DNA of 36,385 nt from a virus (IMGVR_UViG_3300038379_000145:1-36385); one strand, 5' to 3'; positions 9,717-29,198 are shown, counted from the stretch's first letter. The notes: generated by a model not told the origin, from the sequence alone. Numbers and translations are program-made.

Positions 9717-9878
9717 TCATTTTGGGGTTATGTTTCGCGCTCGACGCTCTCGCTCCTCGCGGTCGCGCAATCTCTTATCAAGCCAATTCCAGCCCATGTG
9801 ATACCCGATCACTAGCCCGGCCATCACAGCCACCGGCCGAATATAGTTATAGGCAAAGTTCGGGTCATCGAACATCAT
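9717..9878 (-). CDS. Small single-TM protein (53 aa); not in ORF track
   Basis: Manual translation gives MMFDDPNFAYNYIRPVAVMAGLVIGYHMGWNWLDKRLRDREERERRARNITPK*. ATGA overlap with the upstream stop, terminator downstream. Confidence 0.65.
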   Translation of the reverse strand: MMFDDPNFAYNYIRPVAVMAGLVIGYHMGWNWLDKRLRDREERERRARNITPK

Positions 9879-11977
9879 GCGCCGCCGTACGCAAAGAACT
9901 CATTCGGCGCGAACCCAAGCGCGTTGACGGCGCCCCCTTGCAGAGCAAGGGGGCCAGCCCACGAACGTAGCTCGCGCTGCTCTTTCGCCCTCCTCAAAGC
10001 GCGGCTGAGCAATCCGCGCTCTTGCGCAAACGCCTGAATGTTGCGCGGCGCGTTCGGCCCAGTCAATGGCGTCCGCATGAGATCGAGAATTTCTGTAGCT
10101 AACTGCTCGTCATAGCGTGCCTGTTGATCGCGCCCCAGCGCCCGCTGAACGCGCGAGAAAGGCGATCCGTCCGCGCCAAACATCTGCTCGGCGCCCTGGA
10201 GTTTATCGGCGGTTGGCGAACCGCGCCCAAGATTCGTGTCGGCATAGTTGAGGAACAGCCGCCGCTCGTAATCGAGAGCGCGCATGACGCGGTTAAACCG
10301 CGCCTCGCCGCCAAAGATAGCGCGGAGATTGTTGCGCTTGGCCTCATTGCCGACGATAGCGCGAAGCACGTCAGCGCGGCCCGTGCCAGTATCAGCGCGC
10401 GCCAGCTCTCGACGTAGCCCGGAAATCGCCGCATGACGCGCGGCCTCGCGCTCAGCGTTACTCATGCGCGCCAAGCGGCGGGCGTAGTCGGCAAGATCAA
10501 CCTCCCCGCCGTTCAGCCGCACGCTATCCTCGCCCATGCGCCACGCTTCCTTCAGCCGTTCAGCGCCGGCATATTTGCTCATAGCGCGACCGTAGGCGCT
10601 CTGTGGCCCGCCCATCATGCGAATGACGGCCTGATTGACCATCTGGTCATCCTGAACCATCTCGCCAACCGCCGAACCTCGCGGTGCGCCAAGCGGCGTC
10701 ATTCGCGAAGCCCGATAGACCGCGCTGACTTCGGCGCTCACGTTCTCCTGAAGACGATGCCAGAAGCGCGGCGAGCGCATCATGGCCTCGTCGGTCATAT
10801 TGGGATTGCCGGTTAGCCGGCGCATTGACTCCCGCGCGGCCTCAACAGCAGAGCTGAAACGAGCGCCAGAGCGGCTGTTAAAAGCCACGAAGTCCCGCAA
10901 CTCACGCGGGACCGATTGCACGGTTTGCCGCATGGCCTCTGTGAAGAGCGGCGCCGCTTCGGTCTTCTGAATGCCGTCCAGTTCTTCCCAGGCTTGCGCC
11001 ACTGTACGATTGCGCCCGCCGCCGAGATCACGAACCAGCATCGCGTCAACGCGATCTCGTGCGCCCGAATTGCGTTGCTCTAGCGCCTCCTGCATGGCGC
11101 GTCGCCCAGCGCTTGGACGCGCCGCCGCCACCATCGTCATATTCGTCCCGGCGTCGCCCAGCGCATCCATAACCATGGGGTTGGAGCCGGGCGAGAAGCG
11201 TTCTAGCCGCGCCAAATTACGCGCGCGTGACGCCAACTCATCCTCAACGCTCACGCCCCTTGCAGCAGCCATCTCTGGGATGTCTGAGCGATTGATGGCG
11301 CGTCCAAGTTCCTGCGCGGCGCGCTCGGCCGGATCCAACATCGGGGAGACGGCAGAGCGCCAAGCATGCGCCGCGCCCATTCCCAACCCCTGCAAAGCGC
11401 CGCCTGTGACTGCCCCCAGCCCAGCGCCGATAGCGCCACCCGTCAGGCGATTCCGCCAGCCCTCTACACTGTCTAATCTGTCATCGTTGTCTGAGGCCGC
11501 TCCATAAAAGGCGCCAAAGCCAGCGCCGCTGCCGCCTGCCGCTAGAACTCTCTGCGTTGGCGTCAAATTGCGGAGGGCATTGGCGCCGGCCGCGGCGCCC
11601 CTAGCGCCGCGCGCAGCTAATCCAACCGCGCCGCCTAGAGGCAACGCGCCAGCCAACGCGCCAGCGAGCGCTGAGCCGCCGTGATATTGCCACGCATCGC
11701 GCAGACGCTGACGCGAGCGCTCGGCCTGGTCGCGATAGGCTGAACCGAAATCGCCGCCCCTAGCCGCCGCGCCAATGCCAGCGCCGAGGCCCATGAACTC
11801 GTCCCCCAAGCCCAGACTTAGCGAGTCTCCAGCAGACGAGAGAAATGAGCCGAACTCGCCGCCAGCGCCCTGCAGATTGCCCATGCGGCGCTCTTGCTCA
11901 ATCTCATAGCGAGTCGCGCGTCCGCTTGCGATGCGCTGCAATTCTTCTGTCGAAAAGGCATCCCAGCCTCGCGTCAT
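9875..11977 (-). CDS. DNA ejection/pilot protein (700 aa; P22 gp16-like position)
   Basis: Gly/Ala-rich hydrophobic N-terminal part (DSLSLGLGDEFMG, GAIGAGLGAVTGG) and a helical Arg/Ala-rich body. Last gene before the fibres. Confidence 0.75.
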   Translation of the reverse strand: MTRGWDAFSTEELQRIASGRATRYEIEQERRMGNLQGAGGEFGSFLSSAGDSLSLGLGDEFMGLGAGIGAAARGGDFGSAYRDQAERSRQRLRDAWQYHGGSALAGALAGALPLGGAVGLAARGARGAAAGANALRNLTPTQRVLAAGGSGAGFGAFYGAASDNDDRLDSVEGWRNRLTGGAIGAGLGAVTGGALQGLGMGAAHAWRSAVSPMLDPAERAAQELGRAINRSDIPEMAAARGVSVEDELASRARNLARLERFSPGSNPMVMDALGDAGTNMTMVAAARPSAGRRAMQEALEQRNSGARDRVDAMLVRDLGGGRNRTVAQAWEELDGIQKTEAAPLFTEAMRQTVQSVPRELRDFVAFNSRSGARFSSAVEAARESMRRLTGNPNMTDEAMMRSPRFWHRLQENVSAEVSAVYRASRMTPLGAPRGSAVGEMVQDDQMVNQAVIRMMGGPQSAYGRAMSKYAGAERLKEAWRMGEDSVRLNGGEVDLADYARRLARMSNAEREAARHAAISGLRRELARADTGTGRADVLRAIVGNEAKRNNLRAIFGGEARFNRVMRALDYERRLFLNYADTNLGRGSPTADKLQGAEQMFGADGSPFSRVQRALGRDQQARYDEQLATEILDLMRTPLTGPNAPRNIQAFAQERGLLSRALRRAKEQRELRSWAGPLALQGGAVNALGFAPNEFFAYGGA

Positions 11978-13437
11978 GGAACGAGCCCAGCTTGCCGCAT
12001 TTGTTGCTCGAAGACACGCGCCCTTTGCGTCTGTCTATTTCTGAGCGCTTCTTGATACTCACGCACCAGCACCGTCTCGCGGCCCTGGCGCGGCTGCCTT
12101 AGCAGCCTTGGCATGGACGTATCGCCGCCAATATTGCCATATCCGTTAGACGCTGGCGCGCGTTGACGCTCTGCAAGCACGCGGGCCGCCGCCTGTTGCT
12201 CCGCACTCGCGCTGCCGCCGCTTGATGGCGGCGGCGATGACTGCCCCGTTGCGCCGTAGCGCGTATAGCCGTCTTGGCTCTGATACCAGTTGCGTCCCGT
12301 TGCTGGATCTGGCTCGTAAAGCGAGCGCCCGCCGCCGCCCTGCATGTATTGAACGCGACTTTGCACGGAACGCTCCAAGTCGGCGCGATCCTGGCGCGCG
12401 CGCGCTAGCCAGTCTCTAACAAACAGATGCCCGGCCTGGCTGTTCGGATTGCCACGGACAGCAGAAAGTAAGTCGATATTGGAGACGGGCGTTTGCCCGC
12501 GTAGCTCTTCGCGAGCGAGGTTCGTGCTAACCGCATAGATCGTGTTCAAATCGCGCCGCATTTGCGGATCGCGGACGCGCGCCAGAACAACAGATTGATC
12601 GCCATCCATGATCTGATCGAACGCGGCAGGGTTGCGTTGGAGTATTTCCTCCAGCGCCGCAATGTCATTATCGACCAGACGCCAATTGCTCAGCCGACCC
12701 ATGTCGGTATTCATGCGCTCAGCTTCGCCACGACCAAGCAATCCTTGCGCCGAGTTGAAAAGCCGGTCCTGCTCCAAGCGGCGCGCGTCCATGGCAAGCG
12801 ACGCGCCACGATAGGCGCGGTTATCACGCGCCTCTTGCGTTTGCAGTTCCAGTTGCTGCCGCCGCAGGTCAAAATCGCGTTGCTGCTGCAAATATGATCC
12901 CAGCTCGTCGGGATCGACCATGCGCAGTTCTGCGCGCTCTGCCTCTGGGCGGCTGTTGATATACTCCTGCGCCAGCCGGCGACGCTCAGTCATACCAGAG
13001 CGCTCTTGCTGCGCCCATTGCCACTGCTCGCTCTCGCGCTTATCCGCCACCGCCTGCCGGCGCTGCTCGTTCTCCAGCGCTTGCCGCTCGCGCTGATCCT
13101 GCCCGTAGGCGCGCAAGTCCTGGCCCACGCCGGCCCAGTTCGAGCCCTGCGCATTGCCCAGCAAGCTCATGCCCAGCGTGAACAGCGGCGAGCTGAAAGC
13201 GTTGTTGAGCCGATCGCTGAACCCACCCTTTCCGTTCTGCCCGGTCAGCCGCGACAGCCACCCGCCGCCGCCCGTGTCCGGTCTGGATTGCACAAGCGGC
13301 TGCTGCATCGGTTGCGGCGGCGGCGCTATCGCCGGCCCCTGGCCTTGGCCAAAGGCTTGACCATAAGCCTGCTCGGCGCCGGGGATGTACGGATTGACGC
13401 CGGGGATGCGTTGCATCCAGGGAGAAAGGAGGCCCAT
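11974..13437 (-). CDS. DNA ejection/internal virion protein (487 aa; gp20-like position)
   Basis: Q/G/P-rich N-terminus, LFTLGMSLLG segment and Q/R/E coiled coil. Begins MGLLS. Confidence 0.7.
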   Translation of the reverse strand: MGLLSPWMQRIPGVNPYIPGAEQAYGQAFGQGQGPAIAPPPQPMQQPLVQSRPDTGGGGWLSRLTGQNGKGGFSDRLNNAFSSPLFTLGMSLLGNAQGSNWAGVGQDLRAYGQDQRERQALENEQRRQAVADKRESEQWQWAQQERSGMTERRRLAQEYINSRPEAERAELRMVDPDELGSYLQQQRDFDLRRQQLELQTQEARDNRAYRGASLAMDARRLEQDRLFNSAQGLLGRGEAERMNTDMGRLSNWRLVDNDIAALEEILQRNPAAFDQIMDGDQSVVLARVRDPQMRRDLNTIYAVSTNLAREELRGQTPVSNIDLLSAVRGNPNSQAGHLFVRDWLARARQDRADLERSVQSRVQYMQGGGGRSLYEPDPATGRNWYQSQDGYTRYGATGQSSPPPSSGGSASAEQQAAARVLAERQRAPASNGYGNIGGDTSMPRLLRQPRQGRETVLVREYQEALRNRQTQRARVFEQQMRQAGLVP

Positions 13438-13449
13438 AGACGTTGCTCT

Positions 13450-13803
13450 CTACCGCATCGGGTTCGTCTGCATCAGGATCAATTCGACATCATCGTAAAG
13501 CATAGGGCTCTGCGCCTTGACTTGTTGAAGTAGTTGATTCGCGCCCGCCTCGTTGCCTTGTTCGACTAGCGCGCGGACGTCCATTGCGATTTGGCGCGCA
13601 TGCCCTTTGTTTTGTAGCGAGACGCCATCTTCTGCCCAGGCAAGCCCCTGCCGCGCCATTGGCGCCCACTCAGGCAAGGCGCCGCGATAATCACCTGGGC
13701 GCATGACGTTATGCAACGTCTGTCCGAGGCTAGATTGAGCGCGACCGCCGAAAACTTCGCCTAGCCCACGCATTCGCTGAGCGGCGCGACTTAGTATGCC
13801 CAT
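13450..13803 (-). CDS. Hypothetical protein with shared N-terminal leader (putative virion cargo)
   Basis: Begins MGILSRAAQRMRGLGEVFG. GGAG RBS. Confidence 0.75.
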   Translation of the reverse strand: MGILSRAAQRMRGLGEVFGGRAQSSLGQTLHNVMRPGDYRGALPEWAPMARQGLAWAEDGVSLQNKGHARQIAMDVRALVEQGNEAGANQLLQQVKAQSPMLYDDVELILMQTNPMR

Positions 13804-13823
13804 GCTAATCTCCTAATAGGTCC

Positions 13824-14330
13824 TCAAAAGCTCTGCGGCCAGAAGCGTTGCAGGATGCCCTGCATCGGATCGCCAAGCGTCGAGCCGTAATTCGCCAGCG
13901 GATTGCCGTTCGGGCGGCCGCCCAGAGGGCCGCGCGTCGTCGCGGGCGCGCTGGTGCTCATCGGCATCGGCGGCGGGGTAAACGTTGGCGGCGCGCGCCC
14001 TGGGCCTTGGCCATTCATCATGGCGCCAAGCTGCTGCTGGAATTGCGGGCTGTTCGCGAACGCGCCTTGCATGCCGCCGAAGCTGGGCGCCTCGCCCGTC
14101 GCCATCATCTGCAAGCCATTCTGGAACATCGGGCCAGACAGCGCCGATGCCCCCTGGTGCAGCCACTTCGGCCCGCCAAGCTCGCTTGAGTTGACCGCCA
14201 TCGGCCCGCCGGGCTTCGGATCAATGCCCTGCCCCGGCTTGTTGTTGAGCAACATGGGCAAGAGGCCAAGCATCGCCGTACTGCCGCCCTGCCCCATACC
14301 GAGGCCGCCAAGCGCGCTGAGAATGCCCAT
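13824..14330 (-). CDS. Low-complexity G/P/M/Q-rich putative internal virion protein
   Basis: Begins MGILSALGG and starts 2 nt after the upstream stop. Confidence 0.65.
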   Translation of the reverse strand: MGILSALGGLGMGQGGSTAMLGLLPMLLNNKPGQGIDPKPGGPMAVNSSELGGPKWLHQGASALSGPMFQNGLQMMATGEAPSFGGMQGAFANSPQFQQQLGAMMNGQGPGRAPPTFTPPPMPMSTSAPATTRGPLGGRPNGNPLANYGSTLGDPMQGILQRFWPQSF

Positions 14331-14332
14331 TG

Positions 14333-15469
14333 TTACAACGCTCCATAATCAACGCACAGGAAGCCCGATGCGTGCGTGTAAACTGCGTGCGGCGGCGCTT
14401 CGTCGGCCATGACGCCGACGCGCTTCACGCCGGGCGCATCCCAGAGGTAGGCGAAGCGATAAAGCGGCGTGCCGTTGATGTCGGCGTCAAGCGGCTCAAT
14501 CTCGCGCTTCAAGCGCCGGTCAGAGAAAGCCGCAAACAGGCTCGCAATGCTCGACGCCGCGCCAAGGCCCTGCATGAGTCTGTTCGGCCCCGGCTGCGTT
14601 TGCGTCTGCGTGCTGCTGGAGAAATCCGGCAAGCCGCTCATCATGCCCGCGTATTGCTGCAAGTACTGCCACGGCGCGTTGGCCTGATAGTCATAACGCG
14701 CGCGGTCGTCGTTGATGTAGTTTTGCGCTTGGCCTTCATAGATGCCGCCCACGTCGAGCATGGCTTGGCCCGGCATCTGCCCGTAGCTGAAGAGGCTGGG
14801 CAGCAGCGCCTGCTGACGCGCGGCGTCCTGATTGCCCTGGCTCCACAGCCCACCCAGAAGATCGGCGCCCGCCAGCCTACGGTTGGCGTTGGCGTCGCCG
14901 TAACCGGCCAGCGCTGTCTGCGCCTGCAGGCCGCGATTGCGCTCCGTTTCATACGCGGGCGCGTAGATGGAGCTATAGAGATCGCCGATGCCGCGCGTCA
15001 GCGCTCCGGTGTGAGCGGCGTTGGCGCCGAAGCGGCCCGCTTGCGCGAAATTGGCGTTGACCGCGTTCGTGACCTGCTCGGCCCCGCGATTGAACAGGCC
15101 GTCAAGATGCGGATTGACGCCATTGCCGAACTGCGAGAGCCCGCCAAGGTTCTGGTTGTTCAGTCCGCCCTGCGCCGCGTTGGCCGCGAACGGCATGGCC
15201 GGGTTCCAGCCGGACAGTGAGCGCCCCGCCGCCGCATTGGCCGCCCCCAGGTTCGGCGCCCCGCCCATGGCGTGGTTTTGCAGATAGTCGAGCCCGCTTT
15301 GCGTCTGCTGCGAGAACGGAACAACCGTTTGCCCAGGGTAATAGTTCGGCGTGCCCTGGTTATAGAGGTTCGCCCCCGCCTGCATGATGTTCGAGCGCCA
15401 TGCCTGCGTGACCGGATCGACCTCGGTGACATTGCGCACCGTCGAATTTTGAGAGCCGCCGCCGCCCAT
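14333..15469 (-). CDS. Ejection/pilot protein with C-terminal peptidase-S74-like chaperone domain
   Basis: MGGGGSQNST start and G/A/Q/N-rich body. FSDRRLKREI...LYRFAY...GVMADEAPPHAV...GFLCVDY is the S74 autocleavage signature. Confidence 0.8.
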   Translation of the reverse strand: MGGGGSQNSTVRNVTEVDPVTQAWRSNIMQAGANLYNQGTPNYYPGQTVVPFSQQTQSGLDYLQNHAMGGAPNLGAANAAAGRSLSGWNPAMPFAANAAQGGLNNQNLGGLSQFGNGVNPHLDGLFNRGAEQVTNAVNANFAQAGRFGANAAHTGALTRGIGDLYSSIYAPAYETERNRGLQAQTALAGYGDANANRRLAGADLLGGLWSQGNQDAARQQALLPSLFSYGQMPGQAMLDVGGIYEGQAQNYINDDRARYDYQANAPWQYLQQYAGMMSGLPDFSSSTQTQTQPGPNRLMQGLGAASSIASLFAAFSDRRLKREIEPLDADINGTPLYRFAYLWDAPGVKRVGVMADEAPPHAVYTHASGFLCVDYGAL

Positions 15470-15477
15470 TTACATCC

Positions 15478-15789
15478 TCACTGTATAAAATCGTCGTAGG
15501 GAGTCGGCCGCCTTTGGCCCAAAAGCATCTGGGCGGCTTTTCCACTCCGAACCGCCCGAATCATCTCATCAAAAATCGCCTGCTCGTCCGGCGCTAGCGG
15601 CTCTCCGGCATAGAATTTCCGCGCGATCTCCCGCCCTAAATTGATGTCCGCCGCATTCGGACCAGATTGCGCCATGCGGTCAGCGACAGACGACATAACC
15701 TGAGAGGTTAGCCCACGCTCGGCGCCGGGCGTCGAAAACATATGCCCTGAGCGCAAAGCGCCCCTGGCGGCTCGGCTGAGAAGGCTCAT
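15478..15789 (-). CDS. Hypothetical protein with shared N-terminal leader (putative virion cargo)
   Basis: Begins MSLLSRAARGALRSGHMF. TGATG coupling to the upstream gene. Confidence 0.75.
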   Translation of the reverse strand: MSLLSRAARGALRSGHMFSTPGAERGLTSQVMSSVADRMAQSGPNAADINLGREIARKFYAGEPLAPDEQAIFDEMIRAVRSGKAAQMLLGQRRPTPYDDFIQ

Positions 15790-16187
15790 CAGATTTCACG
15801 CTCCAACGTCACAAAAGTCCCCGTCAGCTTCCAATGCGGCAAGGTCTTCAGCCAACCTTTGCGCCCGCGCGGAATGCGCACCATCGTGCAGCCAAGCGCC
15901 CGCGCGAATTGATCGAACTCACCGTCCACAAACGGCCATTCATGCGCGTTCTCGCCCGCCGCCAGCAGGCAATCCAAGATCAGCTTGCCGTCAGCTCGCA
16001 GCGTGACGCACGTCACCATGACCGCCTGCACTTCATCGCCCTGCACGATGGCGACGATGGGCCAATGCTCCAGGTTTTCGAGCACGCGGTGCACCGTGAA
16101 CTCGCCCCGGCTTTCGGCGCACGCCTTGCTTAGCAGCGGCTCGATGAACTCCCACACGGCAGGCAATTGCTGCGGGAGAATGTGCAC
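15789..16187 (-). CDS. GNAT-like virion assembly protein (P22 gp14-like position)
   Basis: VWEFIEPLLSKAC, LAAGENAHEW, FARALGC and GRKGWLKTL match a common podophage family found before the ejection genes. Confidence 0.65.
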   Translation of the reverse strand: MHILPQQLPAVWEFIEPLLSKACAESRGEFTVHRVLENLEHWPIVAIVQGDEVQAVMVTCVTLRADGKLILDCLLAAGENAHEWPFVDGEFDQFARALGCTMVRIPRGRKGWLKTLPHWKLTGTFVTLEREI

Positions 16188-16213
16188 GAGATGGCGAGAC
16201 TCGTCCTCGCGGG

Positions 16214-16438
16214 TCAGAACGTGCTCAGCGCTGCGCGTTTCCAGTTGCCGCCCCTTGTCTTGATGTAGATGTAATTGTCATCGCACACGATCTGCCCGGC
16301 AAAGCCCGCCGCGCTTATGCTCGCCGGCGTCCCCTCCGGTATGCGCGGACGGTCCTCAAGCGTGTCCACAGCGTCGCGCACGTCTTCCTTGCTGTATCCA
16401 GGCGCAAGCTTCGGATCGCGGCGGGCAATGATGGTCAT
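16214..16438 (-). CDS. Short tail needle/fibre-tip-like protein (74 aa)
   Basis: TPASISAAGFAGQIVCDDNYIYIKTRGGNWKRAALSTF resembles a common phage fibre C-terminal motif. Occupies a gp26-like position. Confidence 0.6.
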   Translation of the reverse strand: MTIIARRDPKLAPGYSKEDVRDAVDTLEDRPRIPEGTPASISAAGFAGQIVCDDNYIYIKTRGGNWKRAALSTF

Positions 16439-16893
16439 GGATCGAAGAGGCCTCTAATATTGCTCTCTCGCAAATCGGCAAATACAGATGACGGCGGAAG
16501 CTCCCATTCGGCATCGTCAATTATGTTGTTGATGCGAACCCCGTCGTATCGGCCGGCTCGCGCCAAAGCGACAAGCTCGTCTGTGTTTATTACGTCTCTA
16601 TTCCATCCGGCCTTTCGCAAGGCCGCTTGCGCGCGCTCTGGAAGGGAGGAGACGCGAACCACCTGCCCGCCGCCCGCATCGGCAGTGAGAAAATTCGCCG
16701 TTCTCATCATGGCCGGAACAACGTTAGCGCCATCGCCATAAGCATAACTTCCCGCAACGTGCGGCGAATCACTCCACCACTGCACAGAGCCAGTGCGTGA
16801 GTTAAACGGCCCGCGAAGCCCTCGAAAAACGGGGACCTCAAATTCGGGCGCCCGCGCCATTGCAGCTTTCATGGCGCGACTAAGTAAAGCCAT
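16435..16893 (-). CDS. ADP-ribosyltransferase-like protein (ART-PolyVal-like), 152 aa
   Basis: ATG at 16893 after GAGG. Contains VFRG, WWSDSPHVAGSYA, GANVVP, YDGVRINNIIDD and NIRGLFDP. Leader MALLSRA. Confidence 0.7.
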   Translation of the reverse strand: MALLSRAMKAAMARAPEFEVPVFRGLRGPFNSRTGSVQWWSDSPHVAGSYAYGDGANVVPAMMRTANFLTADAGGGQVVRVSSLPERAQAALRKAGWNRDVINTDELVALARAGRYDGVRINNIIDDAEWELPPSSVFADLRESNIRGLFDP

Positions 16894-16897
16894 GACC

Positions 16898-17323
16898 TCA
16901 GCCGCGCACCGGTAATATTCTGCCCGACAGATCGGCAACAACCGTCGTTGGCTCCAGAACGACGCCGGTGTCGTCATCCATGACATTGCGGATCACTAAG
17001 CCATCGTAGCCTCGGCGCTTCGCCGCTGCGGCAAGCGCCTCTGTGTCTGTGGTTTGCAGGCCGCGAAACTCTCTTCTCAGAGCCGCTGGGATCGGAACAT
17101 CAAACCACGGCCCGCCAGCGGCATCGATCTCTAGCGCGTTTTTAAACGAACCGCTGCCAGCGCCAACCTGCCCGTACTGAGCCGCCAAGGCTTCGCTTTC
17201 GCTCCAAAACGGCGCCACGCTTCTTTCACCGCGCTGCCCATTACCAAAGCCACGATAAAGGCGCGAGAATTTTACGCCATTTGAACGGCGCATCGCTTGC
17301 ATCAAAGGCCTCAACAACCCCAC
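16898..17323 (-). CDS. ADP-ribosyltransferase-like protein (ART-PolyVal-like), 141 aa
   Basis: GTG after GAGGAG. Contains LYRG, FWSESEALAAQYG and AKRRGYDGLVIRNVMDD. Leader MGLLRPL. Confidence 0.7.
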   Translation of the reverse strand: MGLLRPLMQAMRRSNGVKFSRLYRGFGNGQRGERSVAPFWSESEALAAQYGQVGAGSGSFKNALEIDAAGGPWFDVPIPAALRREFRGLQTTDTEALAAAAKRRGYDGLVIRNVMDDDTGVVLEPTTVVADLSGRILPVRG

Positions 17324-18777
17324 TAGCGCACGCTCCTCACCGCGCTCGCCTTGAACTCAACCCCACGCGCATACGTCCATGTCTGCCCCGCCGGGATCAC
17401 CATTTGCGCCGCGTGATAGAACCCGTTAGCGCCGCGCTGCGGGCAGCGCCCGCTCGCCTGCTGGCTCACCTGGCTTTGGAACGTCATCGTATCGCTCGGC
17501 TTGACCTTCGATCCTGCAGCCACCGTCGCCCCGCTCGCGTCGCTCAGAGGCTTAGCCCACTCAATCGATGAGCGCTGACCGTCAGCCAGCATGACCGCGT
17601 TTGTCTCGAACGTGGCTTCCATGTTCGAGCCAGCGAAGCTCGCCAGCTTGTGGTTCGTGTCAAAGGCCCCGAAGTAAAACGCCCCGCCCTGATAAAACGG
17701 ATCATCGAAGCTGATCGAATAATCCGTATCGAGATTGCCCGTCAGATCGTCCAAGCTCACGCCGATGGAGATCGCCGGCGCCAGCAATTCATGGTTGACC
17801 TCGGCGTGCGAGGCTTTGCCCAACTCATAGTTGAAGAACAGAATGTCGCTCGGCGTGTCGCCGCCGCCGCCGGGAAAGCCTGCGGCGAACACCCGGTTCT
17901 TGGGATCGATCGCCGTGGTGATCGCATACCAATAGTCGCGGGACGAATTGTCCAAAAACCAGCGATCGAACTTCTCCAGCCCAATCGGCACGGGCTGGCT
18001 CTCGAAGTCCCACATATACCAGCCGTCTTCGCTCAGGAAGAAGCAGCGCTGGCCGTACTGAATGAGACTATTGGGCTCGATGCAGCCGATATTCTCAATC
18101 AGCTTGTCGATCCGCATAATGACATCGCCGCCCACGTCCAGAATACGGCGAATGCACTTCTCCTGGAACAGGTAGAGCGCGGCCTTGGTTGAGGCGAACC
18201 CGGTGATGTTGCCGCCGTCCGCAAACTCCTGTTCGTCGCTCTCGCCCGTGCCTGGCGTCCAGCTTTCGCTGTTGCCGCGCGCGCTCCACTTGATCGCCAT
18301 GCCCGACGATCCGAGCGCGCCCAAAAAGACAAACTCGCCATAGGTGGCGATGAACTTGGCCGTTCCCGGCGAGCCGCCCAGATTGGCGAATTGCGTCGCC
18401 GCCGTGCTCATGTCGATATACTGCAAGGCGTCCAACGCATTGGTGAGAATGAGCCTGTCGCCGTATGTCGTGCCGCGCCAGCGTGTCGTCGTGGTCGCTG
18501 TCGTATAAGCCGCCGTGCGGCTGTAATTCGTCCAGGTCGTGCCGACGAGCTTGTAAATCTCATCGGCATCGCAAGCGAACATGTGGGCGGCGTTGTCGAT
18601 GTCGCGCACCGGAAAGACGCCCCGGCAGCGCGAGCCCAGCGCGTTTGTCGTCGCCTGCAAGCTCTTCAGCGGTCGGTAGTGATCGACGCACGGAATGCAG
18701 TTGAGCGCTTCGCGGGCGTGCGACGGGCCAATGGCGGCCTGATCCGGCAGCCAGGGGCCGAGATCAACGGCCGGCAT
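17323..18777 (-). CDS. Tail hub/nozzle protein (P22 gp10 / T7 gp12-like)
   Basis: Begins LGPWLPDQ, is beta-rich with WSARGNSESWTPG and FFLSEDGWY, and has the expected size and position. Confidence 0.75.
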   Translation of the reverse strand: MPAVDLGPWLPDQAAIGPSHAREALNCIPCVDHYRPLKSLQATTNALGSRCRGVFPVRDIDNAAHMFACDADEIYKLVGTTWTNYSRTAAYTTATTTTRWRGTTYGDRLILTNALDALQYIDMSTAATQFANLGGSPGTAKFIATYGEFVFLGALGSSGMAIKWSARGNSESWTPGTGESDEQEFADGGNITGFASTKAALYLFQEKCIRRILDVGGDVIMRIDKLIENIGCIEPNSLIQYGQRCFFLSEDGWYMWDFESQPVPIGLEKFDRWFLDNSSRDYWYAITTAIDPKNRVFAAGFPGGGGDTPSDILFFNYELGKASHAEVNHELLAPAISIGVSLDDLTGNLDTDYSISFDDPFYQGGAFYFGAFDTNHKLASFAGSNMEATFETNAVMLADGQRSSIEWAKPLSDASGATVAAGSKVKPSDTMTFQSQVSQQASGRCPQRGANGFYHAAQMVIPAGQTWTYARGVEFKASAVRSVR

Positions 18778-19297
18778 GCGCCATCCCGTAAGCGCCTGCG
18801 CCCGCTAGAGCGCCAGGCCCCAGCGTGCGCGCGGCCCATTGGGCGTACGCGCCGCTAGTTGGCTTTAGGAAGAACTCGTCACCCGATCGGATCATCTCAT
18901 AGCCGCTTCCCGCAAGCCTCGCCTCAAGATCGCGTGCGTAGCGTCGATTGTGGCCGCCGCTGATGCCGCGGAAGGTGTAAAGTTGCGGCGGCCTCGCTTC
19001 GATTTCCTTGGCGATCTTCTCTGCCGTTCCGTCAAAAACGTCCCTGACCTGCCTGGGCGATAGGTCAGCGCGGCGTTCGGCGCCGGTCCAGCCCCAATTG
19101 ATACTCGTTGCCAGTGGCTTGCCTTTGATGCCAACGGCTTGCGCGGCATCTGGCGTCACGTCTTGGAGAACGTAGTCAAAGTCTATGCGCTGCCCGCCCA
19201 CATTGTCGCTGTAGCGACTGAGTTTTGAACCTAGACGCCCCGCGAGGCGGCTGACCAGTCCCGGATTGCGCAGCGCGATCCTACTCAGAAAACCCAC
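18764..19297 (-). CDS. Hypothetical protein with shared leader (putative cargo; possibly GNAT-related fold)
   Basis: GTG start, MGFLSRIALRNPGLVSRLAGRLG, and a Gly/Ala-rich C-terminal tail. Confidence 0.7.
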   Translation of the reverse strand: MGFLSRIALRNPGLVSRLAGRLGSKLSRYSDNVGGQRIDFDYVLQDVTPDAAQAVGIKGKPLATSINWGWTGAERRADLSPRQVRDVFDGTAEKIAKEIEARPPQLYTFRGISGGHNRRYARDLEARLAGSGYEMIRSGDEFFLKPTSGAYAQWAARTLGPGALAGAGAYGMAHAGR

Positions 19298-19448
19298 GTT
19301 CCGCCTTCTCCCGCGCCTGGGCTTCCGCCCGGTCGCGCGCGTCCTGTTCCTTGCCGGAAAACACCCGCGCTGCGCCTTCGTGCTCGCCTATGCGACAGAC
19401 GATGATCTTGCCGCGTGCGTCGATGCGCTCGCTGAACTCAGGCGCCAT
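19281..19448 (-). CDS. Small hypothetical protein (about 55 aa)
   Basis: MAPEFSERIDARGKIIVCRIGEHEG... fills the gap and overlaps both neighbours. Confidence 0.5.
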   Translation of the reverse strand: MAPEFSERIDARGKIIVCRIGEHEGAARVFSGKEQDARDRAEAQAREKAERGFSE

Positions 19449-19908
19449 TCCGGCCATTCCAAGCGCCATAGAGAGCGCCGCCGCCGACCGGCACGCCAAG
19501 CAGCCATGCGGCCAGCAAGTCAGACGAATCCGCACGCGCCGGATCGAACGCCGCAAAGATCGAGCGCACGTCGCGCGGGTCGGCAACGATGCGGTCATTA
19601 TCCAGCGTCTTGGCGCTCCGGCCCCGGCGCAGGAAAACCGGGATCACGTTGGCGCCTTCCGGGTCGCCGTAGCCGTTGGCGTAATTGTTCGCCTTCAACT
19701 GATCGCGGGTCACATAGACGCCGCGCCCGTAGGCGCCCGGCCGCGCCTCAAAGGCCGGGAAGTTCGCGCGCGTGCCGTGATACCAGATCTTGCTCGTATC
19801 GAAGCCTAGCGCCTCGGCCCGCGCCAATTGCTCCGCGCGAGGCGAGAGACGGCCAAACATCTCGCCGGATTCCAGCGCGGCGCGCGCCGCTCGACTGAGA
19901 AGGCTCAT
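19438..19908 (-). CDS. ADP-ribosyltransferase-like protein (ART-PolyVal-like, H-type), 156 aa
   Basis: RAEALGFDT, WYHGT, GRGVYVT, ANNYA, GANVIPVFL and VRSIFAAFDPARADSSDLLA. Leader MSLLSRAA. Confidence 0.78.
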   Translation of the reverse strand: MSLLSRAARAALESGEMFGRLSPRAEQLARAEALGFDTSKIWYHGTRANFPAFEARPGAYGRGVYVTRDQLKANNYANGYGDPEGANVIPVFLRRGRSAKTLDNDRIVADPRDVRSIFAAFDPARADSSDLLAAWLLGVPVGGGALYGAWNGRNGA

Positions 19909-20561
19909 GCCACGCTCTGCGTTCTAGCCACGAGAATGGACCCGCTCGTTTGCCGGTTCTTGGCCTGTGCGTTGATGCCGCGCACCTTGGAGGCGAACTC
20001 CACCGTCTCCATCGCCATGCCGTCAGGATCGCGGCTCCAGCGATAGTATTCCGCCAGCACGCCGGACAGGTAAACGCCGGGATGCGCCGTCAGAACGGCG
20101 TCCGTTGAAGCGTCGGCCGTGAACGAGCCCAGCGCCGCCCAGTAGCTCACCTGCAGCGTTTGATCGGTCGTTGGCGCTATGAACAGCGTCGAGCCGTCGA
20201 TGGTGTATTTCGTCGGGGTTCCCGAAATCACGCTGTCGGGGTGCGTCCGAAACTGCCCAAGCGGCATGTAAAGCAAATCGATGCCCGTGCCGTCGCTGTT
20301 GTTCAGCCAAACGCGCTCATATTCCAGCACGGTCGCCGGAACGGTCGCTTGCCCGCTCGTCGTCGCCAGCGTCGTCGCCGTCAGCATGGACGGAATGCGG
20401 GCGGGCGGCACAAGCCAATTGCGCCCATCCGGCGACATGACGCCGCGATTGAGCTTATCGGCTACGGCGTTCGCCCATTCCAGGAACAGGCTGTCGTCAA
20501 AGGTGCGCTCGGCCCAGGACTCCGCCGCCGTTTGCAGCGTGCCGATATTGGTTATAGCCAA
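19905..20561 (-). CDS. Head-tail adaptor (P22 gp4 / T7 gp11-like)
   Basis: MAITNIGTLQTAAESW, SGTPTKYTI...LFIAPT and HPGVYLSGVLAE are typical of this adaptor family. Confidence 0.75.
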   Translation of the reverse strand: MAITNIGTLQTAAESWAERTFDDSLFLEWANAVADKLNRGVMSPDGRNWLVPPARIPSMLTATTLATTSGQATVPATVLEYERVWLNNSDGTGIDLLYMPLGQFRTHPDSVISGTPTKYTIDGSTLFIAPTTDQTLQVSYWAALGSFTADASTDAVLTAHPGVYLSGVLAEYYRWSRDPDGMAMETVEFASKVRGINAQAKNRQTSGSILVARTQSVA

Positions 20562-21169: not shown

Positions 21170-21729
21170 GGCGCCGCCATCCTGGCGCTGACGCCGCGAA
21201 TGCGCTCGCCAGCAAACCGCATCCGCACCTTGGCGGACTCATCGCCAATCGGCACGCAAACCTGATTGGACAGCATCATGTGGCCCGCCGGCACGTCATG
21301 GCCGCAAACCACGCCAGCGCCCACCATGGCGCCCTTGCCGATAATCACGCCCGGCAGGATCGTGGCGCCTGCGCCGACGCTCGCGCCCTCCTCAATAATG
21401 ATCGCCCAGCGATTGCCGTCGAAGGCTGACGGGTCGAACCGATCCTTGCTCACGCGCGGCCATGCGTCGTTGCAGAGCGTCACGTTCGGCCCAATGAACA
21501 CGTCATCCTTGAGCCAAAAGCCCGGCCCGGCCGCGAGATTGTGACAGATGATTACTCGGTTATCCGACCGGCTGCCGTCGAAGCACGCGCCGGACGCCAC
21601 CACGCAATCTTCACCCAGCACCGCGCCGCGAATGACGCTGGCGAATTGCCAGACCTTCGTGCGCGCACCAATTGAGCCCACGCCGTCAGTGACCGCCATG
21701 GGGTGAATAAACGCCGTCTCGTGAATCAT
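21166..21729 (-). CDS. Hexapeptide-repeat (LbH) acyltransferase, WxcM/WbpD-like
   Basis: ATG at 21729. IGARTKVWQFASV, DDVFIGPNVTLCND and GASVGAGATILPGVIIGKGAMVGAG. Confidence 0.85.
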   Translation of the reverse strand: MIHETAFIHPMAVTDGVGSIGARTKVWQFASVIRGAVLGEDCVVASGACFDGSRSDNRVIICHNLAAGPGFWLKDDVFIGPNVTLCNDAWPRVSKDRFDPSAFDGNRWAIIIEEGASVGAGATILPGVIIGKGAMVGAGVVCGHDVPAGHMMLSNQVCVPIGDESAKVRMRFAGERIRGVSARMAAP

Positions 21730-24417: not shown

Positions 24418-25407
24418 CTAGCTCGTCGCCACGTCCGCGATGATCCAGTTGCCCTTTTCGTTGCGGGACGCCTGGCTGAACTCCATTTTGAGGAGCTTGC
24501 GTTCGGCGTGACCGACGCGCGCCAGAGGCCCGACGCTGAACGGCTGCAGGTTGTGCATCGACCACATCTTGGGATCGATACCCAGCACTGACCGTGGCGT
24601 TGAGGCGCCGCGTGTGGCCGAGGTAGCCACGAAGCGGCTCGGCACCGCCTTCTTGACCCCGAAGTCCGACGCATAGAGATCAACCGCGCCGACGATGACG
24701 TTCGAGTTAACGCCCTTATCCACGATGTTGTACTTCGTCGCCACGCCGGAGAAGGCCGAAAGCGTCTGCTTGGAGAACGAGCCGAGCAGGATGATGGAAT
24801 CCTCCCCGCCCTCGTCCCAGCAGGCCTTGATCCGCCCTTTGAGCAGCGTTTCGGTGAACGTCCGGGTCGATGACCCGTCCGTCGCCGCCGACACTTCGCC
24901 GTTGGAATAGCCGCCTTGCGTTGAGGCGGTGCCGCTCTTGCGGCTGTCGTTGGTGGTGATCCAGGCCTCGAAGCCGGCGCACTGCCGCGCCGTGAGCGCG
25001 GAGCCGTCGTCTGACTTCCAGTTGCCTGAGAGCCGCGCTTCTTGGTGGCGCTTCAGCTCCTTGGTGCGCTTCATGATCTGGTAGCCGGATTCCGTGTCGC
25101 GGCCTGCCGCCGTCACTTCGTCCGCCGAATCCGAGATGATGATCGCCCGGTCCATGAGTTGCTGATGGTTCTTCAGGCGAACAGTCGCCGTGAAGGTGCG
25201 GTCGGTGGCGCTTGCGCCTTCAATTACCGCGATAGAGCCGTCAGCCGACGCAAGGGTGTCCGTCTGCCATTCAATGACCCGGTTCGTGGCTTTCTTGCCC
25301 TTCTGGATCGTTGAGGAAAACGGGGTGTCGGTCGGCGCAATGTTGTAAATCGCGTCTTCCAGCATTTCCCTGACGCCGACCTGCCCGTAGGTGGTCGTCG
25401 TTGCCAT
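24418..25407 (-). CDS. Major capsid protein (DUF5309/SU10-like)
   Basis: REMLEDAIYNIAPTDTPF, IEWQTDTL, KELKRHQE and VDLYASDFG. Follows the scaffold, has an AAGGA RBS and a terminator. Confidence 0.92.
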   Translation of the reverse strand: MATTTTYGQVGVREMLEDAIYNIAPTDTPFSSTIQKGKKATNRVIEWQTDTLASADGSIAVIEGASATDRTFTATVRLKNHQQLMDRAIIISDSADEVTAAGRDTESGYQIMKRTKELKRHQEARLSGNWKSDDGSALTARQCAGFEAWITTNDSRKSGTASTQGGYSNGEVSAATDGSSTRTFTETLLKGRIKACWDEGGEDSIILLGSFSKQTLSAFSGVATKYNIVDKGVNSNVIVGAVDLYASDFGVKKAVPSRFVATSATRGASTPRSVLGIDPKMWSMHNLQPFSVGPLARVGHAERKLLKMEFSQASRNEKGNWIIADVATS

Positions 25408-25426
25408 GTTGAATTGTCCTTAAAGG

Positions 25427-26452
25427 TTAGATGCGCTTGTCGCGCACCAGGCCCGCAAAGAGCCTGACCGCCGCGTCATCGGAATTGGTCTTTCTCAAAT
25501 CCGCCAATGCGCCGGACGTAAACTGACCGTTCGCGGCCCGGTCGCGTTGCGCGCCGCCGCCTTTGGCCTCCTGCTTACTCCGCACCAGCTTTGGCGCCTT
25601 CGCTTCCACCTTGGCTTTGACGTTCCCGCTCTGCGCCTTCATGGCCCGGTAGGCCAAGGCGTCTCGGGCAACGATCGCTTGCCGGTGGTCAATCAGCACT
25701 GCGTCAAGTTCCTCACGGGTGAACCCGTAAGCCTTGCCCATGTCGCTGACGAATTTCTCAACCGTCTCTGGCTTGGTGAACTCCGGCCAAGCACGGTTCA
25801 ACTTCTCAAGCTCGCGGGCGTCGCGCGCTTCTTCCTGTTGCGCCTGCGCCTCCTGCGCCTGCTGCAAAAGCTGCTGACCCAAGCCCTGCGCCTGCTGGTA
25901 TTGCTGGCTCATCCGCTGGTAGTTCGCAAACGCCCGGTGATAGCCGTCCGGGTCGTATTGCGGGCTTGACGGATTGAGCATTGCATCGGCGTTCGGCGGC
26001 TGAGGCGGCGCCAGCATGCGCAGCGCGGCGTCAACCATGGCCGCCATTTGCCGGCCCGCCTGCTGAACGCGCGTAAAGCCTTCGCGCTGGCGCTCGACCG
26101 CCTCACGCTCGACCTGGGCGACAATCTCGTCCTTCTGCGCCTTGAATTGCTGGTATTCCTGATATTCGGCCACCACGTCCTTGAGCTTCAGCCTGACGGG
26201 CTCCTGGCCCTCCTCGCCTTCAAGCTCGATCTCGTCTTCTTCGGGCGCCTCTTCCTGCTTGGCTTGCTCGGCCTGCTTCGCCTCGGCCTTTGGCTTCTCC
26301 TCACCTTCGACCGCTTCCGCCTCGCGCTGGTCCACATCCTGGCCATTGTCCAGCGTGTTCGGGTCGCGCGCGTCCAGGTCCTGCTCGTCCGAGCCCATGA
26401 CCACAGACATGAGCAGGTTTTCTGTTTCGGCTTCCGTGTTCAACTCAGGCAT
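25427..26452 (-). CDS. Capsid scaffolding protein
   Basis: Acidic N-terminus, Q/A coiled coil, YGFTREELDAVLIDHR and a basic C-terminal helix. Directly before the capsid gene. Confidence 0.85.
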   Translation of the reverse strand: MPELNTEAETENLLMSVVMGSDEQDLDARDPNTLDNGQDVDQREAEAVEGEEKPKAEAKQAEQAKQEEAPEEDEIELEGEEGQEPVRLKLKDVVAEYQEYQQFKAQKDEIVAQVEREAVERQREGFTRVQQAGRQMAAMVDAALRMLAPPQPPNADAMLNPSSPQYDPDGYHRAFANYQRMSQQYQQAQGLGQQLLQQAQEAQAQQEEARDARELEKLNRAWPEFTKPETVEKFVSDMGKAYGFTREELDAVLIDHRQAIVARDALAYRAMKAQSGNVKAKVEAKAPKLVRSKQEAKGGGAQRDRAANGQFTSGALADLRKTNSDDAAVRLFAGLVRDKRI

Positions 26453-26461
26453 CTGTCATCC

Positions 26462-26773
26462 TCAAAAGTACGGCTTCACGCCGCGCTGTAGGCGCTGCAA
26501 TTCCGCCTCAGCCGCGCGCCCATCGCGCGCTAATTCCGTTAGGTAGCGAAGCATCTGGCGATGGCTCTGAATCGCCACGGCCAGATTGCGCCGGCCAGCA
26601 TCGTCATCGAGCGGCAAGCTGGTCATGGCGTTGACCATGTTGGCCTCAGCGTTCGCCATGAACGCCTGCACCTGCTCGCTTTCCAGAAACAGCCGCACCG
26701 CCGCGCCTTCGCTGGCGCGCTCAATCAGCCTGCCCTCGTCGGGCGCAGCAGCCGGCGGCTGAGGCGGACGCAC
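26462..26773 (-). CDS. Small helical protein preceding scaffold (Bbp19-like position)
   Basis: Helical 103 aa ORF in the usual portal-scaffold slot. Confidence 0.65.
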   Translation of the reverse strand: MRPPQPPAAAPDEGRLIERASEGAAVRLFLESEQVQAFMANAEANMVNAMTSLPLDDDAGRRNLAVAIQSHRQMLRYLTELARDGRAAEAELQRLQRGVKPYF

Positions 26774-26826
26774 CGCATCGTTGATGAATGAGCCTATCTC
26801 TTTGCGGACGAAGGCCTTGATCTGGT

Positions 26827-27489
26827 CTAGGCGGCTAACAACAGTAATAGGATTTCCTCCTCTTCATCGTATGCGGGCGTAGGCGCAACAGCCTGCTGCG
26901 GCGCCGGAGCCTTGATCCGAACAACCTTGTTTGCGACCGCCGGTGCGGGCGAAGCGATCTCCGCTTCCCGCGCCGCCACCGGCAGCGAATCCAAAAACTC
27001 TTGCAGCTCCCGGCCGCGCTTGCGGCCGTGGGCGCCGGTCTGCGTAGCGCTTGCGACCGCAGTCTCCGCGCCCACGCCCTCCGACGTGATTGTTGCCGTC
27101 GCACTGATCGGCGCCTCCGATTGAGCGCCCTTGCGGCCTGCCGCTGCGATAGCCGCAACCGCTATCAGCGGGGCGTTTTCGCTCTCACCCTCGCGGCCAA
27201 GCGCCGTTATCGTGGCCGCAGCGCTGAGCGGCGCGGCTTGTTGTGCGCCCTTTCTCCCATTGGCGACGATAGCCGCAACCGCGATCAACGGAGCAGCGCT
27301 TGATCCCGTCTCCGCGCCAGCGCCAACCAGCGCACTCGGATCGCGTAGCCTTATGTCCTTGGCCGACGCCTCGCCCTGGTAGAGGTAGATCGGCGTCGTA
27401 ACGACATCGGCAACCGGCAGGTCGCGAAGGGTTATGTCCTTCGAGCTGCCCGCACCCTGATAAAGGGTGACGTTCTTCTGATTAGCCAT
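26827..27489 (-). CDS. Repeat-containing putative virion protein with DEEEEILLLLLAA C-terminus
   Basis: LYQGxxSxKDIxLRD twice, four 20-aa AP(L/I)xAxAxIxAxGRxG repeats, and an acidic-then-hydrophobic tail. Confidence 0.7.
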   Translation of the reverse strand: MANQKNVTLYQGAGSSKDITLRDLPVADVVTTPIYLYQGEASAKDIRLRDPSALVGAGAETGSSAAPLIAVAAIVANGRKGAQQAAPLSAAATITALGREGESENAPLIAVAAIAAAGRKGAQSEAPISATATITSEGVGAETAVASATQTGAHGRKRGRELQEFLDSLPVAAREAEIASPAPAVANKVVRIKAPAPQQAVAPTPAYDEEEEILLLLLAA

Positions 27490-27564
27490 TGGGCCTGGAC
27501 AGTATCACGTACCGCAATCGGCGCGGTACGTCAGCCCAGGCAACGATTTCAGCGCGCCACTGCA

Positions 27565-28119
27565 TCAGGTTCCGTCCCTATTGGTGGCCGTTAGCGTGTT
27601 GACCGTGGTTCCAGCCGTGTCAGGCGAGCCCGCCCGGTACGCCACGAGATAATGCTGCGTTGGGCTCGCATATTCCGTGCCCAGCTCATAGCGCCCGTTG
27701 CTGTCCGCCGTCGTCTCGCGCACGAATGTATCGGTCGCGGTCAGGAAGCCCTGCACCGTTGCGCCAGACACCGTGCCACCGACGCTATCATAGCACGTGC
27801 CCATGATGAATTTCAGGTTCTGCGAGCCCGCCTCGTGGCTCTCCCATGGGCCATAGCCTTCTGCCCCGGCGCCGATCATGTCTTGGCTAATGATAAGGTT
27901 CGCGGGCGCACCAGGGTCTGTGTAGAAACCGCTGGAGCACGGCCAACGGCCATAGGAATGCGTCCAACCGTGGCGCGCGCGCGCCGAAGGCGCGCGCTCC
28001 TGGCTTTGGTAGCGAGCATCCCATAGCGTTGTGTCTTCCGCTCTCGCGCGCGGCAGCGTCGCCTGCATCGTAGCATAGATCGTGTTCGTGCCCGGAACGG
28101 CTTGGATGCTACCCGGCAC
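27565..28119 (-). CDS. Putative virion decoration protein with Ig-like C-terminal domain
   Basis: GTCYDSVGGTVSGATVQGF...TTADSNGRYEL resembles carboxypeptidase-regulatory-like beta sandwiches. Confidence 0.6.
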   Translation of the reverse strand: MPGSIQAVPGTNTIYATMQATLPRARAEDTTLWDARYQSQERAPSARARHGWTHSYGRWPCSSGFYTDPGAPANLIISQDMIGAGAEGYGPWESHEAGSQNLKFIMGTCYDSVGGTVSGATVQGFLTATDTFVRETTADSNGRYELGTEYASPTQHYLVAYRAGSPDTAGTTVNTLTATNRDGT

Positions 28120-28408
28120 GATCGCGCGCCTGGTGTAGTTCTTCGCGAGCGGCCAGGAGCTTCTTTTCCTCCGGCGTGCCCACTAAGCTCGTATCGTAAG
28201 CGGGGACGATCAGGGTTGAGCGCAGGCCCAGACGCTGCTGATTGTGATAGTTCCGCACCGTGTCGCGCGCCGTGTCCAACAGATGCAGCGCATAGGCCTC
28301 GTCAGTGATCGAGCCGCCCACGCTCATGGCCCCGTTGCGTCGAAGCTTGATCTCCAGGCTAGCGACCACAGTGTCGCCGTACAGGTCGTCTGGGTCGCGA
28401 CTACTCAT
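28109..28408 (-). CDS. Hypothetical protein (99 aa)
   Basis: ATG at 28408 overlaps the end of the upstream ORF. Confidence 0.6.
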   Translation of the reverse strand: MSSRDPDDLYGDTVVASLEIKLRRNGAMSVGGSITDEAYALHLLDTARDTVRNYHNQQRLGLRSTLIVPAYDTSLVGTPEEKKLLAAREELHQARDRAG

Positions 28409-28832
28409 CAACCACCGTATGCACCGCAACCGAGGCCGATGACGCCGCCAAATTCCATTGCAGCAGCGAGGCCGCCGATGCGCCCAGCACAATGCCGCGT
28501 GGGAATGTAAAGATGATGCCCGCGCCAATCGTCGCCGGTAGAAACGCGCGGCGGAAATGCTGCGTCGGCACAGTCGGCGCCACAGACCACGCCACTGCGC
28601 ACCCCGTCAGACCGGCCGGGCGGCCTTCATCCTCTGCTTGCACCAGCACCGGCGAGGTCTGCGTTGGCGTGTTGCCCGAGCGGCCATAGCCATAGGTGCA
28701 CGCGGTCGCCGCGCCATTGATAACGCCCACCTCCATGACAGCGGGCTCGTTCGTAGCCGCCGCTTTCACGTCCCAAGACGCCGCGCCTGAGGTTGTGACC
28801 GTTGACGCAAGCGCCAGTGAGTAGATTGCCAT
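28401..28832 (-). CDS. Putative beta-rich virion structural protein (143 aa)
   Basis: A/T/G/V-rich with GAGIIFTFPRGIVL. Starts shortly after the upstream stop. Confidence 0.65.
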   Translation of the reverse strand: MAIYSLALASTVTTSGAASWDVKAAATNEPAVMEVGVINGAATACTYGYGRSGNTPTQTSPVLVQAEDEGRPAGLTGCAVAWSVAPTVPTQHFRRAFLPATIGAGIIFTFPRGIVLGASAASLLQWNLAASSASVAVHTVVDE

Positions 28833-28841
28833 CCTGTTTCC

Positions 28842-29198
28842 CTAATCGCTCAAGCTCAACGTCGTCCCCGACGCCAGAAGGTCATATGTGCCCTGCCCTG
28901 TGTAGCTCTCGTTCGTCACCGGATCAGAGCCGTGGAAGGTGCCGCCGCTCACCGCATTCCAGTAGCCAACATGCGTGATCGTGGTTGATCCGGGCACGTC
29001 GAATTGAACCGTTGCATTGAGCGCCCGCGCCGCGCCTGATGCGGCGTTGAACGTCACCGCCTTGCGCGCATAGGCTGGCGAGCCGCCCGCGACCTCGTTT
29101 GCGCCAGTAGCGCCGGGATCGGCTGTGTGCAGACTTGCGTACGTCACCGTAAGCGCATCCAGCATGGTGTTTTTCGCCGCCGTGACGAACGAGCCCAC
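28842..29198 (-). CDS. Small virion structural protein (fibre-base type)
   Basis: YASLHTADPGATGANEVAGGSPAYARKAVTF and TITHVGYWNAVSGGTF are typical of a widespread phage fibre-associated family. Confidence 0.7.
   Translation of the reverse strand: MGSFVTAAKNTMLDALTVTYASLHTADPGATGANEVAGGSPAYARKAVTFNAASGAARALNATVQFDVPGSTTITHVGYWNAVSGGTFHGSDPVTNESYTGQGTYDLLASGTTLSLSD

Follow-up and report, generated by a model that had tools for sequence, protein, structure and literature searches.

The capsid-targeting sequence (CTS) of the large myovirus T4 is an N-terminal propeptide that binds the scaffold core and is cut by the protease gp21 after L/I-X-E (PMC9026906). In the podophage P22, N-terminal fragments of the ejection proteins gp7 and gp20 suffice for loading (PMC8402733), and even in P22 the recruitment and queuing of podophage ejection proteins is poorly understood (PMC8402733; 10.64898/2026.09.03.749273). 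Here we describe a short peptide with the consensus M-G-L-L-S-R, which we call tag 1, that begins eight open reading frames (ORFs) of an uncultured short-tailed phage, IMGVR_UViG_3300038379_000145; the window that we analyzed is this whole virus record of 36,385 nucleotides. From the sequence, we lean towards the view that the G-L-L-S-R peptide is an uncleaved address that brings interchangeable small cargo proteins into the prohead, for injection along with the DNA.

The phage appears to be P22-like. It has an SU10-type portal, capsid protein, and adaptor, and its late operon follows the P22 gene order (adaptor, hub, needle, a gp14-like gene, and three ejection genes). Three large genes fill the slots of gp7, gp20, and gp16; the gp7-slot protein matches a DNA-ejection PHROG, and the assignment of the other two rests mainly on their position. 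A sequence-only reading of the window had proposed that eight ORFs in this region share a leader, and all eight do begin as it quoted. Where it counted six small genes wedged between core genes, we found seven small genes and one core gene. The small genes, all on the minus strand, encode a 156-residue protein with an ART-PolyVal domain (PF18760, 35.9 bits against a cut-off of 31.2) and a C-terminal glycine-rich hydrophobic stretch (19438..19908); a 177-residue protein in which the profile scan placed a second motif copy at residue 13, and for which the family and atlas searches gave no match (18764..19297); a divergent ART-PolyVal-like protein of 141 residues, recognized by alignment only (16898..17323); another ART-PolyVal-like protein of 152 residues, identified by alignment and by a PF18760 match below the Pfam cut-off (E = 9e-4; 16435..16893); a 103-residue protein that shares its leader with the first of these (15478..15789); a Gln/Pro/Gly/Met-rich protein of 168 residues that belongs to an eight-member cluster and is semi-conserved, with orthologues in the equivalent slot of relatives (13824..14330); and a 117-residue protein with no family match (13450..13803). 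The window's ART-like cargo retains Y-[HR]-G, the start of the ADP-ribosyltransferase (ART) core, and is putatively enzymatic. The tagged core gene (11974..13437, minus strand) lies in the gp20 slot by synteny, and its 487-residue product carries the tag at its N terminus and again at residue 59. Furthermore, the 700-residue protein in the gp16 slot (9875..11977, minus strand; assigned by phrog_5880 and synteny) has a copy at residues 655-664 (9986..10015, minus strand). This copy is the best-scoring site in the genome (score 21.4), is retained in orthologues that otherwise align poorly there, and lies outside the region in which the leader had been proposed.

We found the tag on 8 of the 14 genes from after the adaptor through the gene for the 700-residue protein, and on none of the 40 genes elsewhere (Fisher p = 3e-6). 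This agrees with the initial impression that no such start occurs outside the module, and it counters the concern that the motif might be no commoner here than in non-virion ORFs. A loose regular expression for the motif would be expected to match 0.2 times in 54 genes. When we built a profile without the window's genes, the eight starts ranked 1-7 and 10 of 1,337 on both strands, although the ranks of the ORFs starting at 14330 and 13437 are not independent because the training set held their orthologues. The quoted starts, which might have differed from the true ones, were upheld. Two are GTG codons (19297 and 17323). For the ORF at 16893, the ATG lies 4 nucleotides past the previous stop with GAGG upstream, while the alternative start at 16986 would overlap the neighboring gene by 89 nucleotides, so 16893 is the better start. 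The leaders of the ORFs at 19908 and 15789 are indeed identical at 15 of 19 residues, and they are identical at 39 of 57 nucleotides, as compared to 18 of the next 57. The phenylalanine at position 18 is present in four window leaders as reported, but it is not part of the signal: it occurs in 0 of 56 leaders from relatives and belongs to a sub-motif, G-[EH]-[MV]-F-[GS], found in 5 of 64 leaders.

We searched with the nozzle, the portal, and the first ejection protein and obtained 71 loci (below, loci are given L numbers and genomes G numbers). From 22 of these loci we hand-picked 56 tagged genes, using gene calls and motif matches and dropping duplicate contigs, internal starts, and off-frame matches. 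Across the 64 curated proteins (these 56 and the window's 8), G2 is found in 55, L4 in 59, S5 in 41, and R6 in 34, and because the set was chosen by motif, these frequencies are partly circular. Residue 2 is always G, A, S, or P. Different relatives do carry different cargo behind one leader: the bodies form 29 clusters by BLAST, or 24 clusters among the 54 non-core proteins by phmmer, and equivalent slots carry different cargo from genome to genome. Body types include ART-PolyVal and ParB-like proteins, proteins of 794-838 residues, glycine-rich hydrophobic hairpins, and Gln/Pro-rich proteins. The suggestion that the bodies are unrelated thus holds for these 24-29 families overall and fails for the window's ORFs at 19908, 16893, and 17323, which are ART-PolyVal-like paralogues. 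Among the tagged proteins the motif is found at N termini, at C termini, and internally, so it is not the strictly N-terminal leader that was first described. It is also linked to the core of the ejection module, as it is N-terminal on most second ejection proteins and lies near the C terminus of the third protein in 6 of the 6 closest genomes. In four held-out genomes (G005-G008), the top-scoring starts were those of virion-operon genes. In more distant phages, the second ejection-slot protein appears to begin with G-L-L-type motifs.

Many ART-PolyVal phage proteins of 500-830 residues (in L085, L129, L131, L133, L136, and others) begin or end with G-G-L-L-type peptides, which are possibly a wider form of tag 1; these proteins are often encoded near terminase or portal genes. 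In the cultured pelagiphage HTVC106P (L076:18969-21574), gp42 has a tag-like start, and the ejection block contains an additional gene, gp43, whose product lacks cysteine.

Homologues of the cargo at 19908 that have other termini come from podophages with a different capsid protein and hub. In these second-lineage loci, the layout of wedged small genes matches that of the first lineage. A different motif, L-R-[ERQ]-A-L (tag 2), is found in all 18 of the lineage-2 cargos from which we built its profile, at 33 distinct sites that are usually near both ends. Cross-scans detected tag 2 in one lineage-1 protein out of 64 and tag 1 in none of the 18 lineage-2 proteins: the two tags exclude each other. 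ART bodies from the two lineages are 48-55% identical, which is as close as those of lineage 1 are to one another. Six ORFs of the complete lineage-2 genome, G001, begin with tag 2; all of them lie within the virion genes, head block included, and we found no tag-1 array in this genome. (In G001:C1:16526-37445, the head and ejection genes are on one strand, and the hub, the needle, and three cargo genes are on the other. At L084:10812-12953, a tag-2 cargo gene lies upstream of a terminase with an intein-like domain, which scores 35.4 bits against a cut-off of 35.8.)

A second line of evidence, which is independent of the motif, is the absence of cysteine. Across 28 cluster representatives, the tagged cargo has 2 cysteines in 4,864 residues, as compared to 53 expected (P about 1e-20), and the lineage-2 cargo has none in 4,056 residues. 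All eight proven ejected proteins (P22 gp7, gp20, and gp16, and SU10 gp20-24) also lack cysteine, while their non-ejected tail neighbors have 4-9. Similarly, there is no cysteine in 25 of 25 ejection-slot proteins from seven cultured podophages (L163, L181, L178, L176, L074, L076, and L180). The window's first ejection protein has a single cysteine, in a C-terminal extension. Absence of cysteine is usable as an annotation rule for ejection-slot proteins; this criterion is a pattern from the present analysis, and we found no paper in the literature searched that states such a rule for ejected proteins. On sequence grounds, we consider it quite probable that the tagged proteins are internal to the virion and ejected.

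In another explanation, the small genes ride along as passengers with late expression, having acquired the 5' end of an ejection gene as a ready-made site for starting translation; the peptide would then be either a relic or a signal for stability, and the proteins would remain outside the virion. All eight tagged genes adjoin or overlap their upstream neighbors, and the genes at 19908 and 15789 share 54 nucleotides at 72% identity, a trace of leader copying. However, the codons vary while the residues are kept: the tag is encoded by all synonymous codon types, including both serine codon boxes, and the frequency of an identical codon given an identical residue is only 0.23. A relic would also not account for the tag copies at C termini and in the interior of proteins, or for bodies that lack cysteine and are under purifying selection. 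(Of 17 cargo pairs, 3 were saturated; in the other 14, of which 12 are lineage-1 and two are lineage-2 pairs, the ratio of nonsynonymous to synonymous substitution rates, dN/dS, was 0.05-0.52. None of these 14 pairs includes a window gene, and dS exceeds 1 in several.) We consider the passenger explanation highly improbable. We also rejected a DNA cassette or repeat, as there is just one 54-nucleotide pair at 72% identity plus short, weak matches between leaders, and the codons are randomized.

The tag is probably the loading signal of these proteins. Alternatively, the proteins might be packaged by means of other features, and the helix might act at or after ejection, as a membrane-seeking helix or as a handle that docks in the nascent channel. 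The tag is predicted to be an amphipathic, basic helix (hydrophobic moment 0.45 vs. 0.23), glycine-rich hydrophobic stretches are present in 12 of 54 cargos, and the N-terminal 47 residues of P22 gp20 insert into the gp7 ring after ejection (10.64898/2026.09.03.749273). But if the tag were a generic membrane helix, there would be no call for two lineage-specific sequences that exclude each other, and the unrelated cargo would still have to share some way into the head. We regard a role confined to ejection as unlikely.

Natural exchanges of the head suggest where the tag's reader is encoded. Lineage 1 has two kinds of head block: an SU10-type block, as in the window (portal, scaffold, and capsid protein, 24418..31613, minus strand), or, in many tag-bearing relatives, a block with a P22-type portal and Phage_capsid_3. 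No likeness between the scaffolds of the two head types was detectable (alignment probability 9.9%), nor did their capsid proteins match by BLAST. In a tree of 21 nozzles, the head types interleave, and a single clade is rejected (approximately unbiased test, p-AU 5e-54); the long outer branches of this tree are unsure, and support is mostly good at the inner forks that matter here. L008 and L063 have nearly identical nozzles and different heads, and one pair of cargos is 91% identical across head types, so the swaps between head modules are recent. Because the tag persists across swaps between such dissimilar modules, it follows the tail/ejection block, and there is no support for a reader that recognizes just the scaffold or capsid protein of this particular head. 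Rather, the gene for the reader probably travels with the ejection genes; overall, we put the chance that it lies in the ejection block slightly above even.

The explanation closest to the earlier model is that a head protein that tolerates both head types reads the tag directly; the candidates would be the scaffold, by analogy with P22 and T4, and a conserved surface of the portal. The P22 scaffold recruits ejection proteins (PMC8402733), and gp54 of phage Pa223 binds the portal crown (10.1101/2025.06.11.659172). Also, the scaffold N termini of both head types are acidic while the tag is basic, and some tagged genes are in the head block (L011:1644, L015:6941, and in G001). Given the dissimilar scaffolds and capsid proteins and the recent swaps, we consider a head-protein reader quite unlikely. 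The portal's C-terminal tail was rejected as the reader because, while common to both head types, it is missing in the tag-bearing L063, whose portal carries another tail. The window's SU10-type portal and the P22-type portal of L003 (190-2421) share only their last 149 residues (35% identity; 29199-29640 in the window), so portal tails move between portal families.

P22-type tails are added only after the head is assembled. This makes the nozzle (17323..18777, minus strand; gp10 slot, phrog_3287, untagged, 8 cysteines) and the needle (a 74-residue untagged product at 16214..16438, minus strand; assigned by synteny and phrog_17312) unlikely readers and points instead to an ejection protein, to a loading helper, or to a surface of the head that is tolerant. 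Our first guess is the first ejection protein (14333..15469, minus strand), a 378-residue protein in the gp7 slot with no strong tag (phrog_4287 DNA ejection protein, E = 1e-28), because the N terminus of P22 gp20 lies inside the gp7 ring after ejection (10.64898/2026.09.03.749273). Another candidate is a 55-residue untagged protein with an invariant cysteine, encoded between the adaptor and the nozzle (19281..19448, minus strand). It has no family match and, by eye, a predicted pattern of three strands plus a helix. Its gene is confined to tag-bearing relatives, among which both head types are represented, and distant relatives lack it; it may be a reader or a lineage marker. A possible resemblance of this protein to double-stranded-RNA-binding folds was dropped, as neither Pfam nor the atlas supports it. 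A third protein of interest has a GNAT fold and sits untagged in the gp14 slot (15789..16187, minus strand; predicted local distance difference test score of 89.5; Foldseek matches acetyltransferases, best E = 1e-4). We considered whether it might acylate the N terminus and so create the address; position 2 is always G, A, S, or P, but the glycine is also kept in internal copies, and we set this idea aside as less probable.

Several observations weigh against a loading tag read by the ejection machinery, besides the limits given above for the curated motif frequencies and the dN/dS values. The ejection proteins of P22 load independently and require the scaffold (PMC8402733), which misfits an ejection protein as the hub, and the second ejection protein of Pa223 docks on the portal via central residues 174-319 and not via a terminus (10.1101/2025.06.11.659172). 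Any lineage marker would show the co-occurrence with the tag that we saw for the 55-residue protein. The core proteins are not uniformly tagged: in lineage 1, the second protein of L014 and the C terminus of the third protein in L012-L014 lack the motif at its usual place, and in lineage 2, core ejection proteins reach tag-2 scores of up to 9.6, as compared to 10.6-24.8. The scans are also noisy, with one of five internal matches in the window falling in the portal and 3 of 9 rows scoring at least 7 in G006 being off-target. As for cysteine, 9 of 23 other small genes in the window also lack it, and low-complexity bodies weaken the argument. Finally, the cargo at 19908 lacks the central segment and the strand-5 glutamate of L001:8343 and L007:4660, so part of the ART core is missing.

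The idea of a modular address is nevertheless supported in part: the varied bodies, the re-tagging in lineage 2, purifying selection, the two tagged ejection-slot proteins, and the scarcity of cysteine speak for it, and there is no support for a strictly N-terminal leader, for a role of the phenylalanine at position 18, for bodies that are all unrelated, or for a head-specific reader. In the mechanism that we propose, the tag's helix would dock on a partner from the ejection block that links to either type of head. The likeliest partner would be the first ejection protein, itself untagged, or else a loading helper (the GNAT-fold or 55-residue protein). The tagged proteins would reside inside the head and leave unfolded via the portal and nozzle. 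Recombination would supply new cargo, either by placing a copy of a tagged 5' end in front of a new body or by re-tagging a body from another lineage. Some of the cargo (ART-, ParB-, and GNAT-like) may act on host targets early in infection. More generally, and more tentatively, P22-type podophages might run a plug-and-play injection system, with lineage-specific, position-independent, uncleaved helical tags that are read by the ejection machinery and not by the capsid; we would put this at somewhat less than an even chance.

As to relationships, the nearest cultured phages are distant (nozzle identity of at most 32%, with no match for the 700-residue protein), and no prophage relatives were found among the genome contigs searched. 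A profile of the first ejection protein matches PaP3 orf16 (E = 4e-8) and, weakly, SU10 gp22 (E = 0.005). The second and third ejection-slot proteins match only proteins of RHph_N3_2 and none from P22 or SU10; for the second, the match is to a "putative injection protein" (E = 4e-8). The C terminus of the first ejection protein (14333-14520) resembles the Peptidase_S74 chaperone domain (21.9 bits against a cut-off of 22), which is not present in the first ejection proteins of L007, L012, and L013. In relatives with the SU10-type head, as in the window (20552-23165), genes for a glycosyltransferase, a hexapeptide acyltransferase, and a TPR-containing protein lie between the capsid and adaptor genes and are possibly involved in virion glycosylation.

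If the proposed mechanism is correct, then a variable injected payload is not limited to large T4-like phages but is maintained in small podophages too, and a phage's injected proteins could be predicted from sequence alone by the tag and the absence of cysteine. Any cysteine-free protein could join the payload, and cargo would move between lineages by re-tagging. The mechanism would also show how ejection proteins are loaded and would provide a compact tag for delivering reporters into bacteria. A five-residue motif, a natural second version of it, and natural head swaps make the loading of ejection proteins open to simple experiments.

In its overall mode of action, tag 1 would work like the T4 CTS, without sign of cleavage. 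As in T4 IPI, IPII, and IPIII, a short shared peptide is found on otherwise unrelated small late proteins; the CTS is likewise a proposed route for loading varied proteins, and it too has an ADP-ribosyltransferase among its cargo (Alt; PMC9026906). In contrast to the CTS, tag 1 is also internal or C-terminal and is common to the channel-slot proteins of a 36-kb P22-like podophage. A scan of 45 window ORFs against Pfam and PHROGs revealed no prohead protease, although a divergent phage protease, or one from the host, might escape such a scan; nor did we find a conserved glutamate at positions 2-14 of the tagged proteins. Because both cleavage and a strict N-terminal position fail, we do not file tag 1 as a CTS. 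In the literature searched (which included few subscription journals and no supplements), we found no published description of a G-L-L-S-R motif or of a shared podophage tag. The late genes encode ART-PolyVal, ParB-like, and GNAT-like domains that are predicted to be packaged and injected, and in this they resemble the genes for phage polyvalent proteins (PMC5512222, PMC9503650). In the accessible portions of those papers, however, such domains are fused into polyproteins or to MuF or portal proteins, while the proteins described here are mostly single, small, and individually tagged. The window's cargos (103-177 residues) do not combine several disparate domains in one polypeptide, as polyvalent proteins do; longer, fused ART-PolyVal relatives occur in other phages. 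The Bruynoghevirus Pa223 has an SU10-type head, and, as here, its first and second ejection genes are separated by a small gene without an assigned function; a point of difference is that its gp54 docks on the portal by its middle (10.1101/2025.06.11.659172). In the related comparison with PaP3, orf17 and orf18 (L178:14314-16225) both end in S-G-I-L-S-[KR]. We treated these ends as weak and did not accept them as tag 1, as the G-I-L-S-R end of orf18 is not kept in Pa223 gp54. For P22 and SU10, the available portions of the reports do not describe a short shared loading motif (PMC8402733, PMC9509320, 10.64898/2026.09.03.749273), P22 appears to lack variable small genes between the genes of its ejection module, and the ejection proteins of both phages match the tag only loosely. 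In gene order and in the absence of cysteine, P22 gp7, gp20, and gp16 and SU10 gp20-24 are like the ejection module of the window.

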